A stretch of 64,000 nt of DNA from Candidatus Zixiibacteriota bacterium (GCA_020351995.1 CP070674.1:3533169-3597168), one strand, 5' to 3'; positions 43,137 through 64,000 are shown, counted from the first letter of the stretch. Made by a program: numbers and translations. Notes: generated from the sequence alone by a model not told the origin.

Positions 43137-45221
43137 ATGAAAGCACATTATGCTCTCAGACTTGCTGTTTTGATTGTGCTGGTGCTGAGCGCAAGTACAA
43201 TCGCTTATGGGGACGGGAGGAGCGCTTCATCACAGTTCGATGAGGATGTATGCGGCTTAATCGTCAAGGTAAAATCGGGAGTGAAGATTAGCGTCTCCGA
43301 TGAGCCGGGATTTCGGAACATTACGAATGTACCCGAGCTGGATCGACTCAACGCCAAGTGGGGCGTTACAGGCGTACGAAAACTGATACTGACGGGTCAG
43401 GGCTGTGAAAGCCACCCTTTTGAGCGCTACTACGTTCTGGAGCGCATAGGTGGTTATGACTACGCTGGAATGAGAGAGGAATATGAGCAGCTGCCCTCGA
43501 TTGAGGAAGCTCACTTCAACTTCAAGGTTTCTCTTTGTGGGGCACCGAATGATCCACTCTTCCCTTACCAATATAACCTCTACAACACCGGTCAGCTTCA
43601 CCCCGCGATAGTGACAATAGAGGGAGACAACAACGATACCCTGGCATGGGTCAGTGGTCTTGCTGGTGCCGATATCAATGCCTATGAGGCCATCTCCAAT
43701 CCGCCCGACGATTCGCGAACGGCGGTGGTGGCTGTTCTCGACACCGGTGTCGATCTGGATCACCCCGAGCTGGCCGGAAGGATCTGGACTAACGACCTTG
43801 AGATAGACGGTAATGGTATTGACGATGACAACAACGGATATATCGATGATGTCATTGGTTGGCATTTTATTCAGGAGCGAGGTAGTAAGCCGGGGGGCGA
43901 CAATGACCCCACGGACTGGCTGGGTCATGGCACTATCTGTGCCGGAGTCGTAGCCAGTCTGACAAATAATGAACAGGGGATCGCCGGTATATGCCCTGAT
44001 GTGAAGATCATGGCTCTGACGTCGGACCCTCTCGATGTGGGCTTCACTATTGCCATGATCCTCTATGCCACCGACAACGGAGCGGACGTTATTAGTATGA
44101 GCTTCGTTCTGGGCCGCAAGGCGGCGAATCCACCTCTGATTGCCGCGATTGAATATGCCATCTCTAAGGGGGTAGTACTCTTTGCTGGAGCCGGCAACTC
44201 GGGTATTGAAGAATACAATATACCCGCCAGTCATGATCTTGTCATAGCGGTTGGGGCCTCCAACGACCTGGATCAAGTGGCCGACTTTTCGACTTACGGT
44301 CAGCACCTGGATTTGGTAGCTCCGGGCGTTGATATATTGTCCTTACGAGCCGATGACCTGGATTTTTATGCCATAACGAACGAACCCGAAGTGCACATCA
44401 TCGATGACTACTACTATGTGGCACGCGGTACAAGCATGTCTACCCCGACGGCAGCCGGTGTTGCAGCCACGCTAAGAGTTCTCTCACCGGGTCTGGATCC
44501 TGCAAAGACAAGGGAGATACTTACCAGCACGGCCCGCGATCTGATCGACCCGTACGGCGACGGATCTTATCTCCCCGGTTGGGATATGTACAGCGGCTGG
44601 GGTTGTGTGGATATGGGAGCGGCTCTGAACGCGGCACCCTCCGTCAGAGCCCATATCTCCTCTCCGGTTGCCAACGAGATGTTCTATACACCTTCGGTAG
44701 AAATAGTGGGGACTGCCGATGGCGACGACTTTCAGTCCTATGTGCTCGAGTACGGTGAAGGTTTCGAACCGGCTGAGTGGTTCCAGATTGCTTCATCTTC
44801 ATCACCCGTAACGGACAATGTTCTCGGGGTCTGGTCAACAGGCTCCCTCGGGGGAATCTACACGATTCGTCTTCGCGTAGGCGAGTTCAACTTTGATGTT
44901 GTTACGGTGCAGCTCGACCCACAGGCCGCACCGGTTGCCACAAAAGCGAACGCTTCGAATGAGCCGGTATTGCATGCCAATTATCCCAATCCCTTCAACC
45001 CGTCCACGGACATTCGCTTCAATTTGCCGTATGCTTCGCACGTGAAGCTGGAAGTGTTCAATATCATGGGGCAGAAAGTGTCGACGCTGGTAGACGAGTA
45101 TATGTTGGCCGGCCCTCACATTGTTACCTTCAACGGCGACAATCAAGCCAGCGGCATGTATCTTTATCGTCTAACGACCGACCAATCGGTCATCGCGAAA
45201 AAGATGATGCTGGTGAAGTAG
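43137..45221 (+). CDS. S8 subtilisin-like serine peptidase with T9SS C-terminal sorting domain
   Basis: 694 aa. Triad contexts are VVAVLDTGVD, HGTICAGV and GTSMSTPTAAGV. The tail is nearly identical to that of 40798-42906. Confidence 0.9.
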   Translation: MKAHYALRLAVLIVLVLSASTIAYGDGRSASSQFDEDVCGLIVKVKSGVKISVSDEPGFRNITNVPELDRLNAKWGVTGVRKLILTGQGCESHPFERYYVLERIGGYDYAGMREEYEQLPSIEEAHFNFKVSLCGAPNDPLFPYQYNLYNTGQLHPAIVTIEGDNNDTLAWVSGLAGADINAYEAISNPPDDSRTAVVAVLDTGVDLDHPELAGRIWTNDLEIDGNGIDDDNNGYIDDVIGWHFIQERGSKPGGDNDPTDWLGHGTICAGVVASLTNNEQGIAGICPDVKIMALTSDPLDVGFTIAMILYATDNGADVISMSFVLGRKAANPPLIAAIEYAISKGVVLFAGAGNSGIEEYNIPASHDLVIAVGASNDLDQVADFSTYGQHLDLVAPGVDILSLRADDLDFYAITNEPEVHIIDDYYYVARGTSMSTPTAAGVAATLRVLSPGLDPAKTREILTSTARDLIDPYGDGSYLPGWDMYSGWGCVDMGAALNAAPSVRAHISSPVANEMFYTPSVEIVGTADGDDFQSYVLEYGEGFEPAEWFQIASSSSPVTDNVLGVWSTGSLGGIYTIRLRVGEFNFDVVTVQLDPQAAPVATKANASNEPVLHANYPNPFNPSTDIRFNLPYASHVKLEVFNIMGQKVSTLVDEYMLAGPHIVTFNGDNQASGMYLYRLTTDQSVIAKKMMLVK

Positions 45222-45248
45222 CCAATCGAGATAGCTCCAAAATGGTAA

Positions 45249-47864: not shown

Positions 47865-48065
47865 GGGACCTCCCCCAGGACCGCAAAACCCCCAGCGAGC
47901 CAGGCAACAAAAAGGTCACCACGACCCGTTAAGAACAGGACGACTCGGGGATCAACCAACCCCGAATCCATACTAAACAAACCCGTTATGTATTGTTTGT
48001 CTGAAAGGTAGTCTCGACTTTACTTTACGGATCCTCAAAACGGCAGCACATTAAAAATCGATTAA

Positions 48066-48140
48066 TTACTACATGAGCGGGAACCTGAGCCGTATCCGAA
48101 TAGTTAGTAACGTATCCAAACGGGATAGCACAAGGGGTTC
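48066..48140 (+). repeat. Conserved ~75-nt upstream element (copy 1), shared with 56033-56108
   Basis: The blocks TTACT.CA.GA.CGGGAACC, GTTA.TAACGTAT.CAAA and GGG.TAG.AC.CA.GGG.TTC are shared between the two copies. Confidence 0.4.
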
Positions 48141-48402
48141 TTGCCGGCAGAAAATCTGTATTACCGTGTATAGTTCGGGCAATACTGTACATATAAAAAT
48201 CAGCATCGATTCAGCAACTCAGGAATAGCTGTTTTAAGTAGCGCTGCACCTGTGGGGCGTCAACTATCATTTCATCTGAGAGAGCACTCACACCGGTGAG
48301 AGCGTCGACTACACAAGAGGTATGATCTTGGGGTGGCCTGTCGGCCATGCATCCCGGTGCACTGCTGCTAACCGGAATTTCTTCCATAAGGAGGTCTTTG
48401 TT

Positions 48403-50391
48403 ATGCCAAGAGTTCTGCTTGTAAGCGCGGCCATGGCACTCCTGGCACTCGCGGCGGCCTGGGCGGCATTGGTGCCTACCACCATTGTCGATGTCTTTCT
48501 TCCCGGATCACAACCGCTGCAGAGCGGCGGGCTTCAGACACCGTTCGGCTGCTCCAACTGCCACGGCGGTTATGACGTTAACGTCGAGCCGACATTCAAC
48601 TGGCGCGGCTCCATGATGTCTCAAGCCCAGCGCGACCCTTTGTACGAAGCCTGTCTGGCCATAACCAACCAGGATGCTCCCGAGGCGGGTGATCTGTGTA
48701 TTCGGTGTCATTCTCCCAACGGATGGCTGGGCGGCCGCTCGAGCCCGACCGATGGTTCCGCCCTGGTTGGGATCGACTACGAGGGAGTACACTGCGACTT
48801 CTGCCACCGCTTTGTCAAACCATCTCCGTTAGGGGTGAATCCCTTCCCCGATGACCCCGACTACACCGCCGGCACCTATGCCGCCGACCAGTTGTATCTG
48901 GCGAGACTGGACCCCATTCCGCCCAACTCGTCGAACGCCATGTTCATTGTCGACTGGGATAACACCAAACGGGGACCGTATAACGACGCCACCGCGAGGC
49001 ACGCCACCTTTTACTCGCCGTTTCATAGCGAGTCCCATTTGTGTGGCACCTGCCATGATGTCAGTAATCCGGTCTACTGGAGAGAGCCCGGCGACAACTA
49101 CGTGCCCAATGAATTCAACGCGCCCGCGCCGAGCTTCGATCAATATACGATGTTCCCCGTAGAGCGCACCTACAGTGAATGGCTGATGAGCGAGTATAAC
49201 ACGCCCACCGGTGTGTTCGCTCCCCAGTTCGGCGGCAACAAGGACTATGTCTCCACCTGTCAGGATTGCCACATGCGGGACGTTACCGGTCGCGGCGCCA
49301 AAGATAGACGAACGCCGGTGCGCACTGATTTACCCCTTCACGACCTGACCGGCGGCAATGCCTTTATTCCCGCACTCGTAGCCAGTCTGTATCCTGACGA
49401 CATTGACCTGGCCGCTCTCGATGCCGGGCACCAGCGCGCTATCGATATGCTGCAGCTGGCGGCCACGGTAAATGTAACGGTGACTTCGATCACCAACGGT
49501 TACCTGGCGTCGGTTGAGGTAATCAACGAGACGGGGCACAAATTGCCCTCCGGTTATCCCGAAGGCAGGCGCATGTGGATCAACGTGCAAGCCAACGACA
49601 ACAAAGGCGTTCTGGTTTTCGAATCGGCCGCCTACGATCCGGCCACGGGTGTTCTGGACAAGTACGACCCGACCGCGAAGATTTATGAAATCAAGCCGGG
49701 CATATCAAACCAGCTGGCCGAGATAATCGCGTTGGAGGCGGGTCCCTCCTTCCATTTTGTCATCAACGATACGCTTTACAAAGACAACCGCATCCCGCCG
49801 CGAGGATTCACCAATGCCAACTTTGACCAGATCCAGTCGCCGGTGGTAAATTACGCGTACGCCGATGGCCAGCACTGGGATGTAACCGAGTATGTCCTTC
49901 CCAAAGCGGCCAAGGAAGTGGTGACAACGCTTTATTACCAGACCACCAGCAAAGAATACGTGGAATTCCTTCGCGACGAGAACGTCACCAACGACTGGGG
50001 TAATATCCTGTATGATCTCTGGGTTATCAACGGCAAGTCGGCGCCGGTCGCAATGAACACGGTTGTCACTAAGATAACCGGTCCAGCTACGGCAAGCGTT
50101 GACGACCAACCTCATACCGGTCTGCCTGATGAATTCATGCTTGGTCAGAACTACCCTAACCCGTTCAACCCGAGCACCGATATCAGTTTCACCTTGCCCA
50201 ACGCCTGTTACGTGACTCTGGAGGTATTCAATATTAAGGGGCAGAGGGTGGCAACACTAGTTGATCGCCATATGGAGGCCGGTCACCATACTGTTAGCTT
50301 TGATGCAAACAATGTGGCCAGCGGAGTGTATCCCTACCGCCTGCAGGCTGGAGACTTCGTTGAATCTAAGAAGATGACGGTCGTGAAGTAG
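48403..50391 (+). CDS. Penta-haem c-type cytochrome with T9SS C-terminal sorting domain
   Basis: The start is trimmed to MPRVLL at 48403, after AAGGAGG. It has a signal peptide and five CxxCH motifs (CSNCH, CIRCH, CDFCH, CGTCH, CQDCH). The tail is NYPNPFNPST...GVYPYRL...KKMTVVK. Confidence 0.8.
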   Translation: MPRVLLVSAAMALLALAAAWAALVPTTIVDVFLPGSQPLQSGGLQTPFGCSNCHGGYDVNVEPTFNWRGSMMSQAQRDPLYEACLAITNQDAPEAGDLCIRCHSPNGWLGGRSSPTDGSALVGIDYEGVHCDFCHRFVKPSPLGVNPFPDDPDYTAGTYAADQLYLARLDPIPPNSSNAMFIVDWDNTKRGPYNDATARHATFYSPFHSESHLCGTCHDVSNPVYWREPGDNYVPNEFNAPAPSFDQYTMFPVERTYSEWLMSEYNTPTGVFAPQFGGNKDYVSTCQDCHMRDVTGRGAKDRRTPVRTDLPLHDLTGGNAFIPALVASLYPDDIDLAALDAGHQRAIDMLQLAATVNVTVTSITNGYLASVEVINETGHKLPSGYPEGRRMWINVQANDNKGVLVFESAAYDPATGVLDKYDPTAKIYEIKPGISNQLAEIIALEAGPSFHFVINDTLYKDNRIPPRGFTNANFDQIQSPVVNYAYADGQHWDVTEYVLPKAAKEVVTTLYYQTTSKEYVEFLRDENVTNDWGNILYDLWVINGKSAPVAMNTVVTKITGPATASVDDQPHTGLPDEFMLGQNYPNPFNPSTDISFTLPNACYVTLEVFNIKGQRVATLVDRHMEAGHHTVSFDANNVASGVYPYRLQAGDFVESKKMTVVK

Positions 50392-50447: not shown

Positions 50448-50461
50448 GTAATCTTTCTCCA

Positions 50462-50580
50462 CCCCTCCGGTAACCTCAGACCGACATCAGTCGCTGAGAA
50501 GATTCATAAAATCTCTGTAACCCGTTACGATGCAATAAAAAGCTCCCCCGGTCCTGCTAAGAGCGGGACGACCCGCTGAT
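50462..50580 (+). repeat. Composite intergenic repeat, copy R1 (full, most divergent)
   Basis: CCCCTCCGGTAACCTCAg - 36 nt variable - TGTAACCCGTTACGATGCAATAAAAAGCTCCCCCGG - hairpin GTCCTGC/GCGGGAC - CGACCCGCTGAT. Confidence 0.8.
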
Positions 50581-51013
50581 GGAGCCAGAGGTCGAAAATT
50601 TGGCTGAGCAGTTGGGCGAGGTGGTCGTGGCGTAGGAGTGGCCCCGGCCAAAGTCAAGAAGTACCAAGACCGTTTTTGTCCGATCAGTTGACATTTCAGT
50701 AAATTAAATTGGGTGCGGGCTTGACATGTAGTAAATATTGTCATATCGGTACGTAGTTTTAACGCAGCAGATTTTTGAGCTCCGTGACCTAGGCTGTTCT
50801 AAACGCAGAGGCGCGGGGGCCCCTCGAACAAACTCGCGTCAGATGCGCTTGCGGGCACATCTCTTCTGTTAGCGGAACAGAACAGTTCCTATCATCGTAG
50901 ATCCTGCAACCTGATGAGTGTCACCAGCGGAAGTTGAGAATAAATCGCTAGTCGTACCGTTGTCAACGTGTGCGCAGACAGGTTAACCAAACATCAGAAA
51001 AGTGAGTGAGACA

Positions 51014-52798
51014 ATGAACACTGTTGTCAGAGTAGTGTGCTTTGTGTTCTTAGTGGCACTGTTATTGCCACAAGGAACTTCAGCCACGGGGAGCAGCATT
51101 GTGACGGAGGAAGAATCCATTAACTTCCACGCAGAAAGAGGATTGTTCTTGTCAGCTGAAATAATGAATCCTGGCACCGAAAAACAAATCCTTAAGGTTG
51201 TTCTGCCCGATAGCTCAATTCTATATCAGGATTTGACCACCAAGCAGGCATGGAAGGAACAGAAAGAAAATGGGCAGATGGTGAGATCCAACGTATTAAC
51301 AGAGGAGGAACTGAGCCTGCTCAATGCGTTCCAACTGGATACGGGCTGGATTCCAGCCGGTTCTCCCGTCCAGATCAGAATCTTCTTTAGTGTCAGCGCA
51401 GGGAAGATTGTTGTAGATATGCCCGGCGATATACAACTTTCCTACGACGATGCCGACGTACGGGTGGGGCAAGACCTGAGTACGTGGCTCAGCTGGGTTG
51501 GTGAGCAAGGTGGTGGAAATTTCCATATGGAAGGCGGTATAGAATTCGGCGCCATGTATAGGATATATGTCCCTATGCCCTATCCCATTCCGGATATCGA
51601 TGTGGAAGATTTCTTCCCATATGTTCCGCATCTGGATTTGGGCATCTTTCAGGACTGCGGTTTTACGCCGTTCTTATTGGGCAACACGCTACACTGTGCC
51701 GATCAGCTTTATCCCCAGTGGCTGGGCCTCCCGGCCATCAATTTGGGAGTGGCCAGGCTAGAAATAGGTGCCGAATTCAGTGGCGAGGCGGAAGCAGTTC
51801 TGTCAGGGCAGTCAATTTGCGCAGACAACAGTGCTTGTGTTTATGACGAAGGCGCTTCGCAGAGTTATTCGGTCTTTATCCCCGATTGTCAGACAAATGT
51901 TCCAGTAACGAGCGAGTATAATTCAGATTGCCATTTGGAATGGAAATTGAACATTTCGCCGGGCGGTTGCCTTGTCATTTTTCTTCTTCCGGATATTTGC
52001 CTCACCCCCGTAGCGATACCAATCACCATTTTCAGTCAGGATTTAGCACTTGATTTCAACGAACCGACGGTGTCGTTTGATATAGAAGCGGATGTCCCCT
52101 TTGCGCTCGACATTACTCCCGGGACCTGCCCTAATCCTCTCAGACTAAACCCCAACTCAGATGGCATCCTGCAGGCGGCGCTTCTGGGTACAGCAGAACT
52201 CGACGTGTACGACATCGATGTTTCGACTATTGAGCTGGAAGGGGTGCCGGTTTACATGTCAAGCTACCGCGATGCCGCCACTCCCATGCCCGAGGGTGCG
52301 GAAGTCTGCGAATGCAATACCGACGAACCGGATGGATTTACCGATTTGATCGTGAAGTTCGAGCGGCCCAAGATTGCCGAGGCTCTGGGAGAAGTTCATG
52401 AAGGCGACGAGGTAGAACTGACTATTACCGGGCAACTGCTGGATGGGACATGTTTTGAGGAGACCGATTGCATGCTGATTTTTGAAACCGGACCTCCGGT
52501 GGCCGCGCTTAACGCGTCTGATGAAAGCTCACAGCCGAACAGCTTCTCGATCAGCAACTACCCCAACCCGTTCAACCCAACGACCGCGATCAGCCTCAGC
52601 CTCCCGCACGCCTGTTATGTGAATCTGGAGATCTTCAACATCAAGGGGCAGAGGATAGAGACCTTGGTTGATGGTGAGATGACAGCCGGTTCTCACACGG
52701 TCACGTGGGACGGCAGCAGGGTTGCCAGTGGTATCTATCTGTATCGCCTACAGGCCGGTGACTTTGTTGAATCGAAGAAGATGATGCTTATCAAATAA
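51014..52798 (+). CDS. Hypothetical secreted protein with T9SS C-terminal sorting domain
   Basis: The start is trimmed to MNTVV at 51014. It has a signal peptide. The tail is NYPNPFNPTT...GIYLYRL...KKMMLIK. Confidence 0.7.
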   Translation: MNTVVRVVCFVFLVALLLPQGTSATGSSIVTEEESINFHAERGLFLSAEIMNPGTEKQILKVVLPDSSILYQDLTTKQAWKEQKENGQMVRSNVLTEEELSLLNAFQLDTGWIPAGSPVQIRIFFSVSAGKIVVDMPGDIQLSYDDADVRVGQDLSTWLSWVGEQGGGNFHMEGGIEFGAMYRIYVPMPYPIPDIDVEDFFPYVPHLDLGIFQDCGFTPFLLGNTLHCADQLYPQWLGLPAINLGVARLEIGAEFSGEAEAVLSGQSICADNSACVYDEGASQSYSVFIPDCQTNVPVTSEYNSDCHLEWKLNISPGGCLVIFLLPDICLTPVAIPITIFSQDLALDFNEPTVSFDIEADVPFALDITPGTCPNPLRLNPNSDGILQAALLGTAELDVYDIDVSTIELEGVPVYMSSYRDAATPMPEGAEVCECNTDEPDGFTDLIVKFERPKIAEALGEVHEGDEVELTITGQLLDGTCFEETDCMLIFETGPPVAALNASDESSQPNSFSISNYPNPFNPTTAISLSLPHACYVNLEIFNIKGQRIETLVDGEMTAGSHTVTWDGSRVASGIYLYRLQAGDFVESKKMMLIK

Positions 52799-52831: not shown

Positions 52832-52980
52832 CTCCTGCCCTACCAATTTGTCCCCACCCTCCGGTAACCTCAAGCTCGTTATCGATTACTACGTTTCTAC
52901 TGGAAATCTCTATAACCTGTTAGTATGCAATAAAGAAGCTCCCCCGGCCCCGCTCTTAGCGGGGCGCCCCGCTGACTAAC
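52832..52980 (+). repeat. Composite intergenic repeat, copy R2 (full)
   Basis: CTCCTGCCCTAC...CCCTCCGGTAACCTCAA - 37 nt variable - TATAACCTGTTAGTATGCAATAAAGAAGCTCCCCCGG - hairpin CCCCGCT/AGCGGGG - CGCCCCGCTGACTAAC. Confidence 0.8.
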
Positions 52981-53115
52981 TACGCCAAAGGGGGAATCTG
53001 GTTGGCCTCCCTTGTGTTTTGAGGCCGGATTGAAACGTGCAACTGTAAAACGTGGTATAAGCATTATAGGTTGAATGCAAGGCTCGCCTCAACGCCAGAC
53101 AATCACCCACCAGGG

Positions 53116-53670: not shown

Positions 53671-53726
53671 AGTCGGCATTGAAAGAGTGCGTGGCAGAAA
53701 ACGAGTTATCGATTCTCAGTGGTGGC

Positions 53727-53851
53727 CATCCCTCCGGTAACCTCAACACCGTTATAACTCCAAGCAACCTGCCCGGAACTCTGTAACCGGTTACGATGCA
53801 ATAAAAAAGTTCCCCCGGCCCCGCTCTTAGCGGGGCGACCCGCTGATTAAT
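53727..53851 (+). repeat. Composite intergenic repeat, copy R3 (full)
   Basis: CATCCCTCCGGTAACCTCAA - 35 nt variable - TGTAACCGGTTACGATGCAATAAAAAAGTTCCCCCGG - hairpin CCCCGCT/AGCGGGG - CGACCCGCTGATTAAT. Confidence 0.8.
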
Positions 53852-53858
53852 CACGACG

Positions 53859-53886
53859 GGAATCATCGCTGCCGGCTTTTCGTATA
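53859..53886 (+). promoter_or_regulatory. ECF-sigma-type promoter candidate
   Basis: GGAATC-16 nt-CGTATA (compare the ECF-type pattern GAAAC-N16-CGTATA). It lies 44 nt upstream of the ECF sigma start and overlaps the weakly conserved tail of repeat R3. Confidence 0.5.
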
Positions 53887-53929
53887 AGAACTGTAACATT
53901 CCACCCTTTCCGGGACTCTTTTGTTGCAG

Positions 53930-54508: not shown

Positions 54509-55734
54509 CGCAGTTGGTGTCGGCCCGGTCAGTGATGGACGTCGATGACGAACTCAGAGAGCATCTGAAGACCTGCAGTCTCTGCGCTGGTCAGTACCGG
54601 GCGGCGCTTGACCTGCGGTCCTCCCTAGAGCGGGCCTCGGGGTCCGATGATACCGAAACGGTATCGCTGGCGGCGCTCAGGACCCATATCGAGGCGCAGG
54701 TAGAGTCGGCTTCAAAAGAAGCGGAAAGGATGAGTGTTATGGCTAGAGTTGTCGATCAGATGAAGCGCCCCAGATACAGCCTTCCGGCCGCGGCCGTAGC
54801 CGCCGCGGTACTGCTGGCCGTTATATTGCCTCTAAGGTTTGGCAATCTGGTCGAATACGAAGTAGCCTTCGCCAATGTCGACCCGGCGCTGGCGCAGGAT
54901 GGTACCACACTTCGAATGATTCTCGTTGAGATGGAAATCCCCGATGTCGACATTACCATCGGTCCCTGCGACGAAGAGTGCGACCTGGTGATATCGAGCA
55001 TCAAGACGGAGGAGGAGCTCGGCAAGCTCATTGCCGTCTTTGAGGAGGGTGCTAAGGCGACCGTCGTATCGGCGAACAAGGTGGAGATCAATGAAGGCTA
55101 CCGTACGGTCTCCAGCATGACCGAGGATCAGCTGGAACATATGCGGAAGTACAATATCCGGATCATGGAGATGGTCCGGGTAGTGATGCTGGTCGCTATC
55201 GAAGCTTCCCGGCAGGCCGAGGGAGAATTTAAGGGAGAGGCGGTGGTAATTCTCGAGAAATCTGATGGTGTGTACCGCGTGAAATCCTACGAACCGGGAG
55301 ACAATTCCCTTTGGATAAAGATCGTCATGCCGGGCGGGGGTAACGCCCACCGCTTCAGAAACGATGATGGCAGCGCCGAGAAATTTCTGGAAGGCTACGG
55401 GATTGACCCGTCGTTTCTGCGCGATGAGGGCGCCGCCGAAGCAATTGCCAAAGGGACCGATGGCTTGCCTGCGGAATTCTCACTCGGGCAGAACTATCCC
55501 AACCCCTTCAACCCGACCACAGATATCAGCTTCAGTCTGCCGCAGGCCACGCACGTGAAGCTGGAAGTATTCAACATCATGGGACAGAGAGTATCGACCC
55601 TTGTTGATCGCCAGATGGCGGCTGGCACGCATACTGTCACCTTTGATGGCGGTCAGGTTGCCAGCGGCACCTATTTGTATCGCCTGCAGGCCGGCGACAA
55701 AGTGGAAACGAAGAAGATGTCCTTGGTTAAATAG
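54478..55734 (+). CDS. Anti-sigma factor (zf-HC2, single TM) whose extracytoplasmic part ends in a T9SS C-terminal sorting domain
   Basis: It overlaps the sigma gene by 31 nt. Features are an N-terminal H-x3-C-x2-C motif (HLKTCSLCAG), a TM helix (AAAVAAAVLLAVILPL), a ~230-aa outer domain, and the tail NYPNPFNPTT...GTYLYRL...KKMSLVK. Confidence 0.75.
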   Translation: MRCHKAKQRLTQLVSARSVMDVDDELREHLKTCSLCAGQYRAALDLRSSLERASGSDDTETVSLAALRTHIEAQVESASKEAERMSVMARVVDQMKRPRYSLPAAAVAAAVLLAVILPLRFGNLVEYEVAFANVDPALAQDGTTLRMILVEMEIPDVDITIGPCDEECDLVISSIKTEEELGKLIAVFEEGAKATVVSANKVEINEGYRTVSSMTEDQLEHMRKYNIRIMEMVRVVMLVAIEASRQAEGEFKGEAVVILEKSDGVYRVKSYEPGDNSLWIKIVMPGGGNAHRFRNDDGSAEKFLEGYGIDPSFLRDEGAAEAIAKGTDGLPAEFSLGQNYPNPFNPTTDISFSLPQATHVKLEVFNIMGQRVSTLVDRQMAAGTHTVTFDGGQVASGTYLYRLQAGDKVETKKMSLVK

Positions 55735-55793: not shown

Positions 55794-55807
55794 TGTCAGC
55801 CACTTCA

Positions 55808-55930
55808 CCCCTCCGGTAACCTCAACCTGATCTCAATCGCTAAGACCGCACGTTGGGCTTGTGTAACCTATTACAATGCAATAAAAAAGCTCCCCCGGTC
55901 TGCCACCGGCGGGCGAACCGCTGATTAACA
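55808..55930 (+). repeat. Composite intergenic repeat, copy R4 (full)
   Basis: CCCCTCCGGTAACCTCAA - 36 nt variable - TGTAACCTATTACAATGCAATAAAAAAGCTCCCCCGG - hairpin CTGCC/GGCGG - CGAACCGCTGATTAACA. Confidence 0.8.
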
Positions 55931-56032
55931 GAACCCGAATAAATACAAAGTACATCGGTTAAGTGTTGGTTCTCTCCCGCTTCTCTGTGACCTAACGTGG
56001 CGTAAAAAGTTTACTATGATATCACGTCGAAT

Positions 56033-56108
56033 TTACTCCACGAACGGGAACCGGGCCGGAAGTTGGTCGTTATTAACGTATACAAAGAGGGTTAGGACGC
56101 AGGGATTC
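56033..56108 (+). repeat. Conserved ~75-nt upstream element (copy 2), shared with 48066-48140
   Basis: See 48066-48140. It lies about 380 nt upstream of the peroxidase start. Confidence 0.4.
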
Positions 56109-56484
56109 AGCAGCACAAAATTAAGTGTCACGGTGATGGCTTAGCCACACAGGGAAACGCGGATGTTTTCGCGGGGCTCAAAGGCGGCGTCGGACTTGTC
56201 CTTAAGCAAAAGCTCGTACATATAGGATGCGGCTCACAGTTGGCGGAAGCGCCCCTTCGACATTTTGAGTAGAGTGCTTTCCGCTCATTGACGTGGGCAT
56301 GTCGCCAATCATTGATTCCCCCATTCTGTCTGCAAATAGATAAGGCTTTGCTCATCGCCAGTGACTTCAGAAGAAAGGAGGTATGGGTAAGGCGTTACCT
56401 ACCCTTGAAACCGGCTGGAACTACAGCTGTTTCCAGCTGGTCGGTTCTATTACCTATTCTAATTCTTTGCGAAAGGATCAAGTA

Positions 56485-57927
56485 ATGAAGCACTATTTAG
56501 TGTCGTGTTGCGTGATGACATTCGCGATCATGGGGTTGGCAGTAGCAACAGCCGCAGATGATTCAGGTAGTGGGACGAGTTGGCAGTTGAAGCTGGAACG
56601 ACTGGGTGAGTTGATTTACTTCGATGAGAGACTTTCTGAGCCCAATGGCCAGTCGTGTGCCAGTTGCCACCTGCCGGAGGCCGGGTTCGACGATCCCGAC
56701 AATAATCTGCCGGTTTCGGAGGGCGTTATACCAGGCCGGTTCGGCAATCGCAACAGTCCCATCACGGCATATGCCATGTTTAGTCCCGACTTTCATTACG
56801 ACGAAGTTGAGGGCCTCTACGTGGGTGGGCAGTTCTGGGACGGTCGAGCAGTCGACCTCGTTGAGCAAGCTAAAGGGCCGTTTCTCAACCCGCTCGAAAT
56901 GAACAACAGCGACAAAAGTGAGGTAATCAGAGACATACTCTGCGGCGATTATGCCGATCTGTTCCTTCGCTGCTATTACCACTTTGTGGGCCCTCCCTAC
57001 GGTGCGCCTGCGTTGGTGCACAATCCCAACAAAGCGTACGATTTTGTAGCGGAGGCCATTGCCGCCTTTGAACGAACGGAGTTGTTCGGACAATTTTCGT
57101 CGAAGTATGACTGTTACCTGGCAGGGCGCGACGTATTGACCGAGCAGGAGTTGCGGGGCCTTGAGCTCTATGAAGGAAAGGCGCAATGCAATCTCTGTCA
57201 TCCCAATCGCCCGGGCGACGATGGGTCGCCAGCGCTGTTTACGGACTTCACGTACGACAATCTTGGCGTTCCCAAAAACTGGGATAATCCATTTCTTTAC
57301 CTGCCCCCGGAGTTCAATCCGGACGGTGTAAACTTCATCGATTACGGGCTCGGGGGTGTACTGGGTCTTCCCGAGGAAATGGGAAAACACAAGGTGATGA
57401 CACTGCGGAATATCGCTGTCAGCGATCCGTATCTGCACAACGGTTATTACAAAACCTTGCGTGAGGTCGTCTGGTTTTACAACGCCCGTGATGTTGACGA
57501 TACGATTCCTGATCCCGAGGTTCCGGAAAATGTCAACGACACCGAACTCGGCAATCTGGGTTTGACCGATGATGAAGTCGATGACGTGGTTGCGTTCCTG
57601 CAGACGTTAACGGATGGATACAAGCATGGACCGAGCGCGAAGCTGGCCCAGGACCAGCTTCCCAACACCTCCGTCCTGAGGCAAAACTATCCTAATCCGT
57701 TTAACCCGACCACGGAAATCGCATTCACTCTTCCAAGGGCCGCTCATGTGAAGCTGGAAGTATTCAATATCATGGGTCAGAGAGTCGAGACTCTGATTAA
57801 CCGCTACATGGAAGCAGGTGAACATACCGCCAGCTTTGATGCCAGCGGAATGGCCACTGGAATGTACGTCTACCGCTTACAGGCCGGTGGCATCGTCGAG
57901 TCAAAGAAGATGCTGATGGTTAAGTAG
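56485..57927 (+). CDS. Di-haem cytochrome c peroxidase (CCP/MauG family) with T9SS C-terminal sorting domain
   Basis: The start is trimmed to MKHYLVS at 56485, where the signal peptide begins. Haem sites are CASCH and CNLCH. The CCP motif is LRNIAVSDPYLHNGYYKTLREVVWFY. The tail is NYPNPFNPTT...GMYVYRL...KKMLMVK. Confidence 0.85.
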   Translation: MKHYLVSCCVMTFAIMGLAVATAADDSGSGTSWQLKLERLGELIYFDERLSEPNGQSCASCHLPEAGFDDPDNNLPVSEGVIPGRFGNRNSPITAYAMFSPDFHYDEVEGLYVGGQFWDGRAVDLVEQAKGPFLNPLEMNNSDKSEVIRDILCGDYADLFLRCYYHFVGPPYGAPALVHNPNKAYDFVAEAIAAFERTELFGQFSSKYDCYLAGRDVLTEQELRGLELYEGKAQCNLCHPNRPGDDGSPALFTDFTYDNLGVPKNWDNPFLYLPPEFNPDGVNFIDYGLGGVLGLPEEMGKHKVMTLRNIAVSDPYLHNGYYKTLREVVWFYNARDVDDTIPDPEVPENVNDTELGNLGLTDDEVDDVVAFLQTLTDGYKHGPSAKLAQDQLPNTSVLRQNYPNPFNPTTEIAFTLPRAAHVKLEVFNIMGQRVETLINRYMEAGEHTASFDASGMATGMYVYRLQAGGIVESKKMLMVK

Positions 57928-57985: not shown

Positions 57986-58001
57986 ATATCTGTTGCCCTG
58001 T

Positions 58002-58122
58002 CCCTCCGGTAACCTTAACCGTAGATACGTCTACAGAAGCCCGTTATTAATTCGTGTAACCTATTACAATGCCATAAAAAAGCTCCCCCGGCCCGCCATC
58101 GGCGGACGCCCCGCTGATTAAT
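58002..58122 (+). repeat. Composite intergenic repeat, copy R5 (full)
   Basis: CCCTCCGGTAACCTTAA - 36 nt variable - TGTAACCTATTACAATGCCATAAAAAAGCTCCCCCGG - hairpin CCGCC/GGCGG - CGCCCCGCTGATTAAT. Confidence 0.8.
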
Positions 58123-58212
58123 AAAGTCCTGGGAAGACTCTACATTCTGTGTCAAAGGAAATGCATCGCGGTCAGATCTGAAGAATGGGTGGTGCGTCCT
58201 GTCGGATTTCGT

Positions 58213-59040
58213 TCAGGTCCATGAATCTCCCAATTCTCCAACGGCGGACAATGCCACCGATACGATATCACGAGGAATCGAGAAGTACTTCTCTATGGCC
58301 GCGGGGAGCTCATCCAGCCCCGAAAGCTCATCTATGGAATAGTCTGTTCCCACCGATTTGATTATCGACAGATTGTGAATCATCGTGGAACGATTCGGAT
58401 AGTAGCGAACCAGAAGAACCGAGTTCATGAATGTCTGGCCATCACGAAATGAATTCCGAATAGTCTTCTCGAAGTATTGGATATGACGAGGGGTCGGCTT
58501 GACGGTGTAACCGTGCCTGAGTTGTCCTTCTCTAAACATCTGCATACAGGAGTTCCCGTTTTCGTCTCTGGGACGGAGTCTGTACGAATCGCGACCCAGT
58601 TCAATAACGAAGTCCTCATTCAAGTCGAGTGGCATTGGCACCAGGAATGGCGCGGCATAACCAACATCTATCAAATATTCCTTACCATCCAGTCTAACGA
58701 TATTGGTCAGGTGGACATCGGGGTTATTCATGTCGGCGCCGCACAACTTGGCGTCGTACCCCAGGTGAGTGAGCAGCCGATGCAGATAGTAATTGTTCGA
58801 GTAGCAGGTACCTCCGAAGTGGTACTGTTCGATACCGCCGACGTAGGTCTCCAGATCCGGTATGAAACGCAGACCGTCGCGCCGCAGGTAATAAAGCTTA
58901 GAGATGTTTTCGAATGGCACCCGGGTTACGAAAGCCATGACCAATTGCTCCAGGGTTCCAAGGGTCGGTGTCGGGTGCTCCAGGCCGAGCAGACGCATCA
59001 GGCGATTGAGGGTAGAGGCCACTTCGGGATCGTTTGACAT
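58213..59040 (-). CDS. Arylamine N-acetyltransferase (NAT) family protein
   Basis: VPFENISKLYY, GGTCYSNNYYL (catalytic Cys context) and HLTNIVRLDGKEYLIDVGY. The start is trimmed to MSNDP at 59040, because the TTG extension runs into repeat R6. Confidence 0.8.
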   Translation of the reverse strand: MSNDPEVASTLNRLMRLLGLEHPTPTLGTLEQLVMAFVTRVPFENISKLYYLRRDGLRFIPDLETYVGGIEQYHFGGTCYSNNYYLHRLLTHLGYDAKLCGADMNNPDVHLTNIVRLDGKEYLIDVGYAAPFLVPMPLDLNEDFVIELGRDSYRLRPRDENGNSCMQMFREGQLRHGYTVKPTPRHIQYFEKTIRNSFRDGQTFMNSVLLVRYYPNRSTMIHNLSIIKSVGTDYSIDELSGLDELPAAIEKYFSIPRDIVSVALSAVGELGDSWT

Positions 59041-59056
59041 ATTCGTGCTAATATGG

Positions 59057-59130
59057 CTCTGTAACCCGTTAGTATGCAATAAAAAAGCTTCCCGGGGTCC
59101 GACATCGGCGGGACGACTCGCTGATTAACA
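59057..59130 (+). repeat. Composite intergenic repeat, copy R6 (right half only)
   Basis: CTCTGTAACCCGTTAGTATGCAATAAAAAAGCTTCCCGGGG - degenerate hairpin - CGACTCGCTGATTAACA. Box L and the variable segment are absent. Confidence 0.7.
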
Positions 59131-59149
59131 GTTGTTTCATCATATACGC

Positions 59150-59180: not shown

Positions 59181-59492
59181 TTAACAGGATAGTGATATAA
59201 CCATTTCCCAGTCGTCTGGTTGTTCGGTCATGTCGGCAATGCGATTTGTGCTATGCGCCCCGCACTTATCACACTTATGAACGATCTGGTAACCCTTGCG
59301 AGCATGGTGAATGATCTTTAGAGGTTTCATTAGTCCTCCGCAATCACTTGACCTGTCTCCAGGGTGGGTGTCCACGTGAAGAGAGTACAGGCATTTTGGG
59401 CAGTGGTTTCTATAACTGCCGTTTGTGCATTTGACGACATTCAAACCGCAGTTAAGGCACACAAATCCTGTGTTTTCTTTTTTCTGAGACAT
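59181..59492 (-). CDS. RNHCP-domain zinc-ribbon protein
   Basis: 103 aa. It carries the literal RNHCPKC motif plus the additional Cys pairs CLNC and CDKC. The RBS AAGGAGG lies upstream. Confidence 0.8.
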   Translation of the reverse strand: MSQKKENTGFVCLNCGLNVVKCTNGSYRNHCPKCLYSLHVDTHPGDRSSDCGGLMKPLKIIHHARKGYQIVHKCDKCGAHSTNRIADMTEQPDDWEMVISLSC

Positions 59493-59912
59493 TACCTACC
59501 TCCTTGAAAGTTGTTGGTTCACTTTCGAAGAAGGCAGGGTTCCGTATGTTCTTCCCCGGGTGGGGTATCCGGCTCGAATTGCCTATTTACCGATTCACCG
59601 CCGTTCCTTTAGGGTCAGCGATTACTTTCCGTTCCAGCTTCATCAGGGCCTGTTTCATCCCCGAATCCGGACCTCGACCGGTTTTGTTACTTTTTGCCGG
59701 CCACTGTAATGCGGGATTTACCCACATTCCACGGATAGGTTTAGTGCAATCTCACGGACGTTGGCGTCGTCCCCTGTCAGGAATGTCTCTTGAATACATG
59801 TGGTATTTTCACAGTATTCTCCTACGAGTTAAGAGACAAATAGGTTAACAGAAATATGCACCGACGCTGGTGCGAGATAGCGAAACAGATTTTTGAAGGG
59901 CTCATTTCATGG
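59493..59912 (-). promoter_or_regulatory. Unusually long (~420-nt) GC-rich 5' leader of the RNHCP gene; candidate structured cis-regulatory RNA
   Basis: It lies between a consensus promoter and the RBS. It has no credible ORF and many short complementary GC segments. Confidence 0.4.
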
Positions 59913-59947: not shown

Positions 59948-59987
59948 GGGGGGCGATTGAGCCGGAATAACCCACGGACAATCTTTG

Positions 59988-60018
59988 CAGCCCGTTACAA
60001 TTCAATAAAAAAGCTCCC
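59988..60018 (+). repeat. Composite intergenic repeat, copy R7 (31-nt fragment of box R)
   Basis: CAGCCCGTTACAATTCAATAAAAAAGCTCCC. The sequence diverges on both sides. Confidence 0.4.
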
Positions 60019-62555: not shown

Positions 62556-62706
62556 GCTCCTGCCCTACAATTCTACCCCGCCCCTTCGGTAACCTCAACC
62601 ACAGCTAACACCACAGAAACCCACCACCAATTCTTGTAACCTGTTACAATGCAATAAAAAAGCTCCCCCGGTCCCGCTGGAAGCGGGACGACCCGCTGAT
62701 TAACAG
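62556..62706 (+). repeat. Composite intergenic repeat, copy R8 (full, closest to consensus)
   Basis: GCTCCTGCCCTAC...CCCCTTCGGTAACCTCAA - 36 nt variable - TGTAACCTGTTACAATGCAATAAAAAAGCTCCCCCGG - hairpin GTCCCGC/GCGGGAC - GACCCGCTGATTAACAG. Confidence 0.8.
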
Positions 62707-62745
62707 TCAAAGGGGAAGATCAGACTTTTCTGCAAGAGGCTGGCT

Positions 62746-64000
62746 TCAGGGCAGAAGATCAATCACGACGCCACGATCGTTGACCAGTAACCTGCCGCTA
62801 TGACCCGTGTTGATTTCGAAATTAGTGCCAACAAGTTGCAGGTTGTTGAACTGACAGTCCACGCCTTCGGCGAGCGACTCCGGTTTTCCGTCAACAGCGC
62901 ACACGGTTATTTCGGGACAGTAGAAGACGACTGTTTTTTCTCGCGTTGACCAATCGTTAAGTTCGAGAAGCCCTGCCTCTTTCAAAGAGAAAAAGAGATT
63001 ATCGTCACCGGCACTCTCAAGCACATAAACGTCGAAGTGATTACGAAGCTCCTTTGAGCCGCCATCTACCAGCCACTTCTTCGCCGAAGAATTGCGTGAC
63101 CTCCTCAGATTGCGTCCGCTCAGACACACTTCAACGCGAAGGCCGGGCTGCGAGTCAAAGGCGGCGGAATCCCGCTCAAATCCCTCTCGATATTCAGCGA
63201 TCAACCTCTCCGACGTCTGCAAAACTGCCCCATAATCATACCGCACCTTCGCGGCGTCAACTATCGAGTCAACCTCGGCACTATCTACGCTCAATGCCGC
63301 GCCAAGAAGTTCGGCGAAGGTGGATGTCAACTCCGCTTGTTGGATGCGTCGTTTCCAGTCGACGCCCAAATAATCCAGGAGCAATCCCTGGGCAGCCCCC
63401 ACCGGGTAGATTCGATTTCGCGGCATGTTCTCCGGCTTTACGGAACCGGCGCTGACCATTTGACTCAGACTTTCCGTTATGCGCCCTACCGCCGTAATGG
63501 ATTCTCGTCTGTCTGCCATTGAGTTTGCCGCTGATAACGGACCAGTTTTGATATTCAACGATGCAATAAGACCAAGAGCCTTCGCTTCCACATACCTCGC
63601 CGTGCCCTCGTGAATCTCTTTGCCTCGCTCATAATTCTGCACGAACTCGTCAGCCTGTTGCCATCGATGGAGTCGCGTCGCTACGAACTGTGCCGTCAGA
63701 CTGCGTACCGAGTCTTTGTCGTCCTGGCCTAAGAAGCGCAGAGCGTCGTTCAACGATAGAATTTCCATACAGGTCAGCGATGTATTCATCACGTCTTCGA
63801 TTGGATACAGTTCCTCTCGTGCCCATGGGATGTCACCGAACTCCGCGTATTGAAACTGATGAAAATTCTCGTGTACGATATACCCTAGAAAACTCTCATA
63901 ATCCTGCTTAAGGAAACCAACCGCTGCGCAAACGGTACTGTCGATGCGTATGTTGAAAGCCAATTGACCGGTTAGCTGTCGCAACTTTCCCTCGTGAAAG
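62746..64000 (-). CDS. Hypothetical protein with HExxH motif (putative metallopeptidase-like), 5' end outside the window
   Basis: The reading frame stays open to the window edge upstream of the tracked TTG at 63984. The motif IVHENFHQFQ is the only recognisable feature. Confidence 0.55.
   Translation of the reverse strand, partial: FHEGKLRQLTGQLAFNIRIDSTVCAAVGFLKQDYESFLGYIVHENFHQFQYAEFGDIPWAREELYPIEDVMNTSLTCMEILSLNDALRFLGQDDKDSVRSLTAQFVATRLHRWQQADEFVQNYERGKEIHEGTARYVEAKALGLIASLNIKTGPLSAANSMADRRESITAVGRITESLSQMVSAGSVKPENMPRNRIYPVGAAQGLLLDYLGVDWKRRIQQAELTSTFAELLGAALSVDSAEVDSIVDAAKVRYDYGAVLQTSERLIAEYREGFERDSAAFDSQPGLRVEVCLSGRNLRRSRNSSAKKWLVDGGSKELRNHFDVYVLESAGDDNLFFSLKEAGLLELNDWSTREKTVVFYCPEITVCAVDGKPESLAEGVDCQFNNLQLVGTNFEINTGHSGRLLVNDRGVVIDLLP

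Follow-up and report, generated by a model that had tools for sequence, protein, structure and literature searches.

Repeat Units in the Window

The 64,000-nucleotide stretch of a Candidatus Zixiibacteriota bacterium chromosome analysed here in full (GCA_020351995.1, CP070674.1:3533169-3597168; hereafter the window) carries a sequence of about 145 bp that recurs between unrelated genes, raising the question of where this repeat comes from and what it does. An earlier description made without database searches (the sequence-only reading) divided the copy at 62581-62706 into two conserved boxes, L and R, separated by a variable segment of nearly constant length and followed by a GC-rich hairpin with two alternative pairings. 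According to our analysis, the repeat consists of the 3' half of a transfer RNA (tRNA) gene, tRNA-Asn(GUU), together with the DNA downstream of that gene, present in eight direct-repeat copies, and we regard the tRNA-Asn origin of the unit as near certain.

A profile built from the aligned units (nhmmer) detected eight units between 50.4 and 62.7 kb of the window, all on the same strand, including six full units (R1-R5 and R8) and two partial ones (R6 and R7), and no unit in the first 47 kb. The strand given below is the minus strand, which corresponds to the tRNA sense.

50458-50603, minus strand: unit R1 (E = 3.3e-37)
52853-53003, minus strand: unit R2 (E = 1.6e-37)
53726-53871, minus strand: unit R3 (E = 3.3e-37), with an ortholog in the related genome bin19 (L006:7067-7209)
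55805-55947, minus strand: unit R4 (E = 1.7e-36), with an ortholog in bin19 (L006:4969-5112)
57998-58143, minus strand: unit R5 (E = 2.5e-36)
59056-59131, minus strand: unit R6, partial, with box R and the pseudo-tRNA part and without box L or spacer (E = 1e-17)
59957-60018, minus strand: unit R7, partial, with a spacer remnant, box R and the A-run (E = 6.2e-08), in synteny with the related loci L011 and L007
62578-62727, minus strand: unit R8, whole, containing the segment described earlier (E = 2.8e-37)
47904-47966, minus strand: R0, a possible decayed and truncated unit at the left array edge, with the pseudo-tRNA part only, adjoining a MacB/FtsX gene (marginal alone, E = 4.9)

Box L (CCCTCCGGTAACCTCAA, at most three mismatches) occurs six times in the window, always on the plus strand, against 0.18 expected, the core of box R with its A-run occurs seven times against 0.00 expected, and the hairpin motif is essentially confined to the units. 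The copies lie within 12 kb and in one orientation, rather than being dispersed in both orientations with terminal inverted repeats as in miniature inverted-repeat transposable elements or repetitive extragenic palindromic elements. R0 is the positional ortholog of a bin19 unit (b19a) located upstream of the cytochrome gene, the two being about 75% identical by a rough hand count from the alignment that was not computed by a tool. The truncated units R0, R6 and R7 match the consensus less well than the complete units, which is consistent with a requirement for the whole unit.

A genome scan with a degenerate box R pattern (one genome per species) hit two Zixibacteria chromosomes assembled from metagenomes, bin19 (CP070777.1, locus L006) and bin295 (CP070756.1, locus L007). 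It returned 13 hits in all, of which the remaining 10 are probably fortuitous, judging from their organisms and low profile scores. In metagenomes, the gapped box L/box R pattern was not matched at all and the degenerate box R pattern only by chance, and neither of two scans of viral contigs returned a hit. The large genome and metagenome collections were scanned to the end without further copies being found.

Origin of the Unit in a tRNA-Asn Gene

The origin of the unit was recognized in bin295, where an intact tRNA-Asn(GTT) gene predicted by ARAGORN (L007:532-605, minus strand) lies on the opposite strand after box L, a 36-nt spacer, box R and the A-run. The 3' half of this gene and its downstream flank align with every unit of the window. 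R8 is 81% identical over 137 nt to the gene and its 3' flank (L007:443-577), and compared with the tRNA itself (L007:532-605), its acceptor strand is identical at 10 of 10 positions and its anticodon/variable part at 16 of 16. In the alignment of all units, CGACCCGCTGATTAAC, read as its reverse complement, matches three parts of tRNA-Asn, namely the variable loop, the 3' anticodon-stem strand and the anticodon loop. The parts of R8 are as follows (no strand is assigned where none is given).

62582-62599: box L (CCCTTCGGTAACCTCAAC), carrying a GGTAACC half-site; 18 nt identical in the orthologous junctions of the window and bin19
62599-62634: spacer of 36 nt, length-constrained (35-37 nt in 10 units of three genomes)
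62635-62661: box R, composed of the palindrome TGTAAC-CT-GTTACA and a following ATGCAAT, and the A-run; in bin295, this sequence immediately adjoins the 3' end of the intact tRNA-Asn
62662-62671, minus strand: GCTCCCCCGG, reverse complement of the 3' strand of the tRNA-Asn acceptor stem and the discriminator, by alignment with L007:532-605
62671-62689: GC hairpin GTCCCGC TGGAA GCGGGAC in place of the T arm (the real T arm being GCTGG-TTCGAGT-CCAGC)
62689-62709, minus strand: CGACCCGCTGATTAACAGTCA, which in reverse complement covers the tRNA-Asn variable loop, the 3' anticodon-stem strand, the anticodon loop (GTT) and a portion of the 5' stem, by alignment

Read in the tRNA sense, the unit runs from the anticodon loop through the 3' strand of the anticodon stem, the variable loop, the GC hairpin and the 3' strand of the acceptor stem to a T-run and a flank of about 110 bp. 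The A-run is the T-run downstream of the tRNA, and box R, spacer and box L make up the 3' flank of the gene, reaching about 110 bp beyond the tRNA. Box L carries a third half-site, GGTTACC in the tRNA sense, and GTAACC is present three times in all, twice as direct copies at 47 bp and once inverted.

Both boundaries of the unit are sharp. The tRNA similarity stops in or beside the anticodon loop in every unit, where (C)TGTTAATC is found in nine units and is followed by unrelated sequence, and at the other boundary the similarity stops immediately left of box L. The units of the window lack the 5' half of the tRNA, and their T loop is replaced; the hairpin type with a 3-nt loop keeps the 17-nt length of the T arm. 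The sequence-only reading missed this origin, which explains the hairpin as a former T arm as well as the downstream CCCGCT and the A-run. R7 occupies the position of the intact tRNA-Asn of bin295, upstream of an FG-GAP gene, as does its ortholog in bin19; judging from their sequences, the tRNA part of both would carry the decayed remains of a genuine T arm instead of the GC hairpin.

Several further resemblances to tRNA were noted. A tRNA-like mini-structure was rejected, as its closing stem (GCTCCCCC with the GGGGAAG tail) is no better than in shuffled sequences in most units; the GGGGAAG tail itself resembles a faint remnant of the acceptor 5' strand or, in R3, a portion of a promoter of extracytoplasmic function (ECF) type. 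In the tRNA sense, box L (GGTTGAGGTTACCGGAGGGGTGG) loosely resembles the T loop and acceptor 3' strand (GGTTCGAGTCCAGCCGGGGGAGC) in all units, at about 13 of 23 positions with one gap (62582-62604 compared with 62662-62689 in R8), a likeness seen by eye and without statistical support; box L might be an older, degenerate relic of a partial tRNA. In bin295, L007:606-1100 contains two further partial copies of tRNA-Asn (about 676-720 and 1010-1075), which share the strand of the intact gene and flank a small GIY-YIG nuclease gene (Pfam E = 2e-14). One of them has a duplicated tRNA promoter (TTGACT-17-TATATA) and a true 5' half. Each has a GC hairpin of the window family (TCCCGCC-GAAG/AAGG-GCGGGA) directly 5' of TTAA(T/C)CAGCGGGTC, and thus on the opposite side of the anticodon-loop TTAA.

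Conservation of Boxes, Spacing and Hairpin

The spacer lengths given previously for R1-R5 and R8 (36, 37, 35, 36, 36 and 36 nt) were reproduced exactly, and four further units from the two other genomes have spacers of 36 nt each. Because the spacer length is constant, the distance from AACC to AACC is 47 ± 1 bp in 10 of 10 units from three genomes. The claim that the variable segment is constrained in length therefore held, but its supposed lack of any sequence conservation did not, as the mean pairwise identity of the spacers is 0.39 versus a null value of 0.27. R5, R8 and the bin295 unit by the tRNA form one spacer allele group with 0.61-0.67 identity, and since this allele is conserved to such a degree between R5, R8 and the more distant bin295, hypermutation of the spacer was ruled out. 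The box R pattern described earlier also applies overall, with the exceptions ATAACC (R2), ATTAC (R4 and R5) and GTTAG (R2, R6 and two bin19 copies).

The hairpin retains its pairing while its sequence changes, as had been observed, with 98.2% of the alignment cells paired and three of the seven pairs changed on both sides (eight cells). This covariation value was reached by only 1 of 500 shuffles, and control stems slid along the alignment were 36-61% paired. A single position switching between pair types was likewise confirmed (U-A, C-G and U-G); together with this switch, the variation comprises two types of stem, CCCGC/GCGGG (5-nt loop) and CCGCC/GGCGG (3-nt loop). In practice, the covariation represents a few independent events rather than many.

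Neighbouring units share variants, such as the hairpin in R2 and R3, box R and the stem type in R4 and R5, and box R and the start of the spacer in b19a and the bin19 unit b19b. The types of spacer, box R and hairpin are combined in mosaic fashion, which points to exchange among units. The hairpin loop TAAGA (R1, 50541-50559; b19a of L006) and the loop TCTTA (R2, 52947-52965; R3, 53818-53836) are exact reverse complements on the plus strand within the same stem family, as would result from a flip of the whole hairpin in an event of template-switch type.

Orthologous Junctions and Module Order

Two orthologous junctions of the window and bin19 were compared, with the following result.

Box L: 18 of 18 positions identical
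Anticodon part: 15-16 of 16 positions identical
Box R through the acceptor strand: 0.86-0.89 identity
Four-fold degenerate sites of the adjacent genes: 0.63-0.82 identity
Spacer: 0.33-0.34 identity
Hairpin: different stem type

Because spacer and hairpin differ while the boxes exceed the identity of the four-fold sites, the interior of the unit is likely to have been replaced by recombination. The simplest reading of these values would be that the boxes are under purifying selection, that the interior is exchanged between units by recombination or conversion, and that the length of the spacer is constrained rather than its sequence.

The sigma/anti-sigma module and both of its flanking units are 82% identical in bin19. 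In that genome, the cytochrome module follows the sigma/anti-sigma module, whereas in the window it lies three modules upstream, and the left neighbour also differs. With bin19 alone compared, the left limit of homology of the sigma/anti-sigma module is box L and the right limit falls within the unit, and the cargo varies between the genomes with breakpoints at the repeats.

The neighbourhood at the left array edge was also compared (35.7-48 kb of the window). At locus L021 (GCA_975963145.1), whose MacB is 87% identical, MacB is followed by a dockerin gene that in the window is located 7 kb farther upstream, and neither the S8 peptidase gene nor a repeat unit occurs there; beside MacB in bin295 (L022), a unit is likewise missing, and the synteny is rearranged at both loci. 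The surroundings of the array are rearranged between close relatives. The best homolog of the 520-aa gene beside R8 is 57% identical, and two contexts of this gene in more distant Zixibacteria have neither a tRNA nor a unit, while the homolog search with the FG-GAP protein was dominated by longer repeat proteins and returned no usable orthologs.

Gene Modules Separated by the Units

Between the units lie self-contained gene modules, unrelated to each other and located on either strand, each with its own leader or promoter, one or two genes and its own terminator.

R0-R1, plus strand: multihaem cytochrome with a type IX secretion system (T9SS) tail
R1-R2, plus strand: T9SS-tailed protein
R2-R3, plus strand: 199-aa unknown protein
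R3-R4, plus strand: ECF sigma factor and T9SS-tailed partner
R4-R5, plus strand: cytochrome c peroxidase
R5-R6, minus strand: N-acetyltransferase
R6-R7, minus strand: RNHCP protein
R7-R8, plus strand: FG-GAP protein and hydrolase
After R8, minus strand: conserved gene of the 520-aa family

Box L is found about 60-75 nt after the stop codon of plus-strand genes, in three cases after the gene's own terminator, and the minus-strand genes (58213-59079, 59181-59492 and 62746-63984) stop 20-90 nt short of the tRNA-like end of a unit.

Units as Putative Recombination Junctions

The units have one orientation and sharp shared boundaries, lie on the 3' side of a tRNA-Asn locus, include a decayed copy at the array edge and bound modules whose order differs in a relative. 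We therefore read them as att-like recombination junctions of a module array anchored at tRNA-Asn, with boxes L and R as protein sites at a fixed distance, and we put the chances of this reading near even. Among the functions proposed before, that of a protein-measured DNA site or a recombination site fits best, considering the conserved boxes at a fixed 47-bp spacing, the direct repeats in one orientation bounding unrelated modules and the breakpoints inside the unit. Partial tRNA copies arranged as direct repeats are a known signature of site-specific integration at tRNA genes, where successive integrations displace older elements outward and leave extra partial tRNAs (10.1101/2020.12.28.424599).

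According to this model, small modules would have been stacked on the 3' side of the tRNA-Asn locus, with the units as their junctions and as recombination sites of att type (attL/attR-like). The tRNA-derived segments would be the part common to the chromosomal target, and boxes R and L would be sequence-specific sites for a recombinase or accessory proteins, for which the 47-bp spacing matters and the spacer sequence does not. The hairpin, as the former T arm, would have been kept as an inverted repeat. Recombination between units, either site-specific or aided by homologous exchange or gene conversion, would then insert, delete and reorder modules. Both a recombinase acting on the units and the parts that it would bind are predicted here from the sequence.

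Several observations weigh against att-like junctions. Pfam and NCBIfam searches of the sizeable open reading frames in the window detected no domain of a recombinase (tyrosine or serine type), an excisionase or a transposase, and the related loci L006, L007 and L011 likewise yielded none. ARAGORN found no tRNA in the window, which ends 1.3 kb after R8, so that the anchor gene of this genome was not seen, and the units lack the cloverleaf features of a functional tRNA; the intact tRNA-Asn of bin295 is at the position of R7. The array shows no GC anomaly, its modules (0.9-2.6 kb) are far below the size of usual integrative elements, and the unit is known in three genomes only, the metagenome and viral scans having added none to the genome scan. 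Mechanistically, a crossover in the anticodon loop would rebuild a defective tRNA, because the GC hairpin differs from a functional T arm; the crossover point would therefore lie elsewhere, or the anchor tRNA would be dispensable. Moreover, no single fixed point of crossover accounts for the two orthologous junctions together, since each of them differs between the genomes in spacer as well as hairpin, and extra exchange or gene conversion must therefore be assumed. The long-lasting retention of the boxes around a module inherited vertically could just as well indicate a host function.

A variant of the att-like reading, which we consider rather unlikely, is an integron-like platform for gene capture. 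Here, the pseudo-tRNA-Asn unit would serve as the cassette site of an unlinked or unseen recombinase, the cassettes would be very small, self-expressing modules including many with T9SS cargo, and selection would maintain the units themselves in working order.

Alternative Explanations

As a first alternative, the unit might be a cis-element of the host, a regulatory or insulating module in which a protein binds TGTAAC-NN-GTTACA and the half-site of box L 47 bp away, while the tRNA-like end with its T-run stops transcription on the minus strand and the tRNA ancestry is merely historical. Boxes conserved above four-fold sites around a module common to two genomes agree with such a function, as does the palindrome, which shows no compensatory pattern and in this respect behaves like a protein site; three minus-strand genes ending 20-90 nt before the tRNA-like end and the lack of a recombinase in the searches also count in its favour. 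However, the unit is confined to 12 kb although many similar genes with T9SS cargo are present in the other 47 kb, and for the plus-strand genes, terminators of their own are already present ahead of box L. The hairpin does not qualify as an intrinsic terminator, because no T-run follows it on the plus strand and the one on the minus strand is 10 nt away, and the terminator scan flags R2 only. A promoter function fares no better. The extended -10 element that had been read in box R has its upstream TG in only 3 of 11 units (R8, R2 and one bin19 copy) and lacks a conserved -35, three of the eight units have no co-oriented downstream gene, and the promoter scan found no promoter in box R and an overall count equal to the shuffle mean. 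A host element would also leave the sharp boundary at the anticodon loop and the module order of bin19 unexplained, and we hold this explanation to be rather unlikely.

Alternatively, the units could be inert relics, in which a pseudo-tRNA-Asn and its flank were multiplied by segmental duplication or unequal crossing-over in a tRNA-Asn cluster, were homogenised by gene conversion and have no present function, the intervening genes having arrived otherwise. The variants shared by neighbouring units and the mosaic combinations do point to conversion, bin295 has more partial tRNA-Asn duplicates beside its intact gene, and neither a recombinase nor a GC anomaly was found. Conversion alone, however, does not hold box L identical in three genomes while the spacer is randomised at a length of 36 nt; the hairpin has also kept its pairing through double changes, and unrelated genes on both strands between the units are unlike the outcome of tandem duplication. 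We consider inert relics as doubtful as a host element.

A third explanation, in which the unit is transcribed into a leader (riboswitch, attenuator or tRNA-like RNA) that toggles between the hairpin and an alternative pairing to control the downstream gene, appears very improbable. It would account for the compensatory changes of the hairpin and for the prevalence of G-U pairs over C-A mismatches on the plus strand (4 to 1), and R8 does permit two exclusive pairings. As to these two pairings, the sequence-only reading was correct in that the second is possible in five of eight units, but it shows zero covariation, is 79% paired overall and is disrupted in the three units that have the other stem type. 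This second pairing is explained by the downstream CCCGCT, a tRNA sequence (anticodon stem and variable loop) complementary by chance to one stem type, and the supposed switching platform is in fact sequence of a tRNA gene. An Rfam search of the units returned no family even at E <= 5, the fold of the whole unit is no better than that of shuffles on either strand (z = -0.6 and -0.9), and RNAalifold detected no covarying helix besides the hairpin on either strand. Besides, R5, R6 and R8 face downstream genes on the opposite strand, so that no consistently co-oriented gene follows the unit.

Still less credible is a classical integron with the units as attC sites of a chromosomal cassette array, since the same-orientation repeats after small diverse cassettes and the structure-conserved hairpin are offset by the lack, on reading the sequence, of an end-to-end imperfect inverted repeat and of R''/R' core sites (RYYYAAC / GTTRRRY), by a whole-unit fold that is not significant, by the absence of an IntI-like gene from the window (Pfam), by cassettes with their own leaders and terminators and by the tRNA derivation of the unit.

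Other candidates were dropped on reading the sequence, including sigma-54 and ECF promoters built on two GTAACC motifs, dif/Xer sites, a LacI-type operator (central CG in R3 only), serine-invertase sites similar to hix/gix (variable central dinucleotide), ends of IS200/IS605 type (one hairpin per junction instead of two) and Tn7-like ends (no matching opposite end).

Comparison with Known Systems

Partial-tRNA repeats are already known as the classic footprint of integration at tRNA genes. Asn tRNA genes are integration hotspots, and ssrA islands occur in Dehalococcoides. The closest kind of system to the array, read as a series of att-like junctions, is the tandem island at a tRNA or transfer-messenger RNA gene, such as the tycheposon islands of Prochlorococcus, the islands at Asn tRNA genes of enterobacteria and those at ssrA of Dehalococcoides. 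As in these islands, the repeats are partial 3' copies of a tRNA, share one orientation and are located 3' of the tRNA locus, decay is more advanced in older or edge copies, and the cargo between repeats differs between related genomes. Unlike in these islands, no integrase lies in or near the array of 16 kb and the modules measure only 0.9-2.6 kb, the repeat reaches about 110 bp past the tRNA with two conserved boxes at a fixed spacing, and the T arm is replaced by a covarying GC hairpin. Since the boxes are conserved where four-fold sites are only 63-82% identical, the units are not simple decaying scars. The conserved flank of 110 bp with its fixed spacing, the covarying hairpin in place of the T arm, the small modules without integrase and the box conservation above synonymous sites go beyond the usual picture of such islands.

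The array also resembles integron arrays in outline, in that small unrelated cassettes are each followed by a repeat in the same orientation, structure, spacing and short boxes are conserved, and cassette order varies; it differs from attC sites in having no end-to-end bulged palindrome and no R or L core sites, in its tRNA derivation, in cassettes carrying their own expression signals and in the lack of a visible IntI. The attP/attL/attR arms of tyrosine integrases (lambda, L5 and P4-like) are similar in their tRNA-shared core and short repeated motifs (here three copies of GTAACC) that keep a fixed spacing while the intervening sequence drifts, binding in our case being a prediction from sequence, but in the units all motifs are on one side of the tRNA core and no second core half-site is conserved 5' of the anticodon loop. 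With riboswitch and attenuator platforms, R8 and four other units share the capacity to form two exclusive helices, but the second helix does not covary, matches no family, precedes no consistent gene and is a tRNA relic.

If the units are active sites, they would represent cassette-type gene shuffling in a little-studied, uncultured phylum and a route to repertoires of secreted proteins, and if the integron-like platform exists, it would be a cassette system distinct from integrons and from islands carrying an integrase. If they are host cis-elements instead, a tRNA-gene relic would have been co-opted as a protein-binding module. Either way, the riboswitch interpretation is corrected, and a covarying hairpin beside conserved boxes can be the remnant of a tRNA.

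Other Features of the Array

The GGGAA(G/T)ATC tail that had been described as a weaker part of the repeat is accounted for in R3 by a putative promoter, while the tails of the other units have no common -10. The segment in question (53858-53887) consists of GGGAATC, 16 nt and CGTATAA directly after R3, with the ECF sigma-factor gene about 35 nt downstream; its conservation in bin19 is 97%, and it reads as a probable autoregulated promoter of ECF type.

The leaders of the cytochrome and cytochrome c peroxidase modules are homologous over about 350 nt, including ACTCCACGAACGGGAACC ... GTTAGTAACGTATCCAAA (47953-48320 and 55932-56380; L006:4376-4986), which suggests a shared regulatory region for these two haem-protein modules. 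In addition, five gene 3' ends share 62-72% DNA identity over 269 nt and correspond to T9SS C-terminal sorting domains (44953-45221, 50123-50391, 52530-52798, 55466-55734 and 57659-57927). Four of these five ends are followed by a related terminator hairpin (GGCTCCGG...CCGGAGCC, at 45247, 50417, 55761 and 57954), and recombination between T9SS tails could swap N-terminal domains.

A full-text literature search on RNHCP returned no biological papers. About 100 nt upstream of the RNHCP-domain gene (59181-59492), on the same strand and between R6 and R7, a stretch of 149 nt (59590-59738, minus strand) matches the bacterial small-subunit ribosomal RNA (rRNA) model RF00177 (54.8 bits, E = 1.9e-13, model positions 926-1370). 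Its long helices are replaced by short loops, and it resembles a miniature 3'-major domain of 16S rRNA, which could be an rRNA mimic acting as a leader or binding site, or a decayed rRNA fragment.

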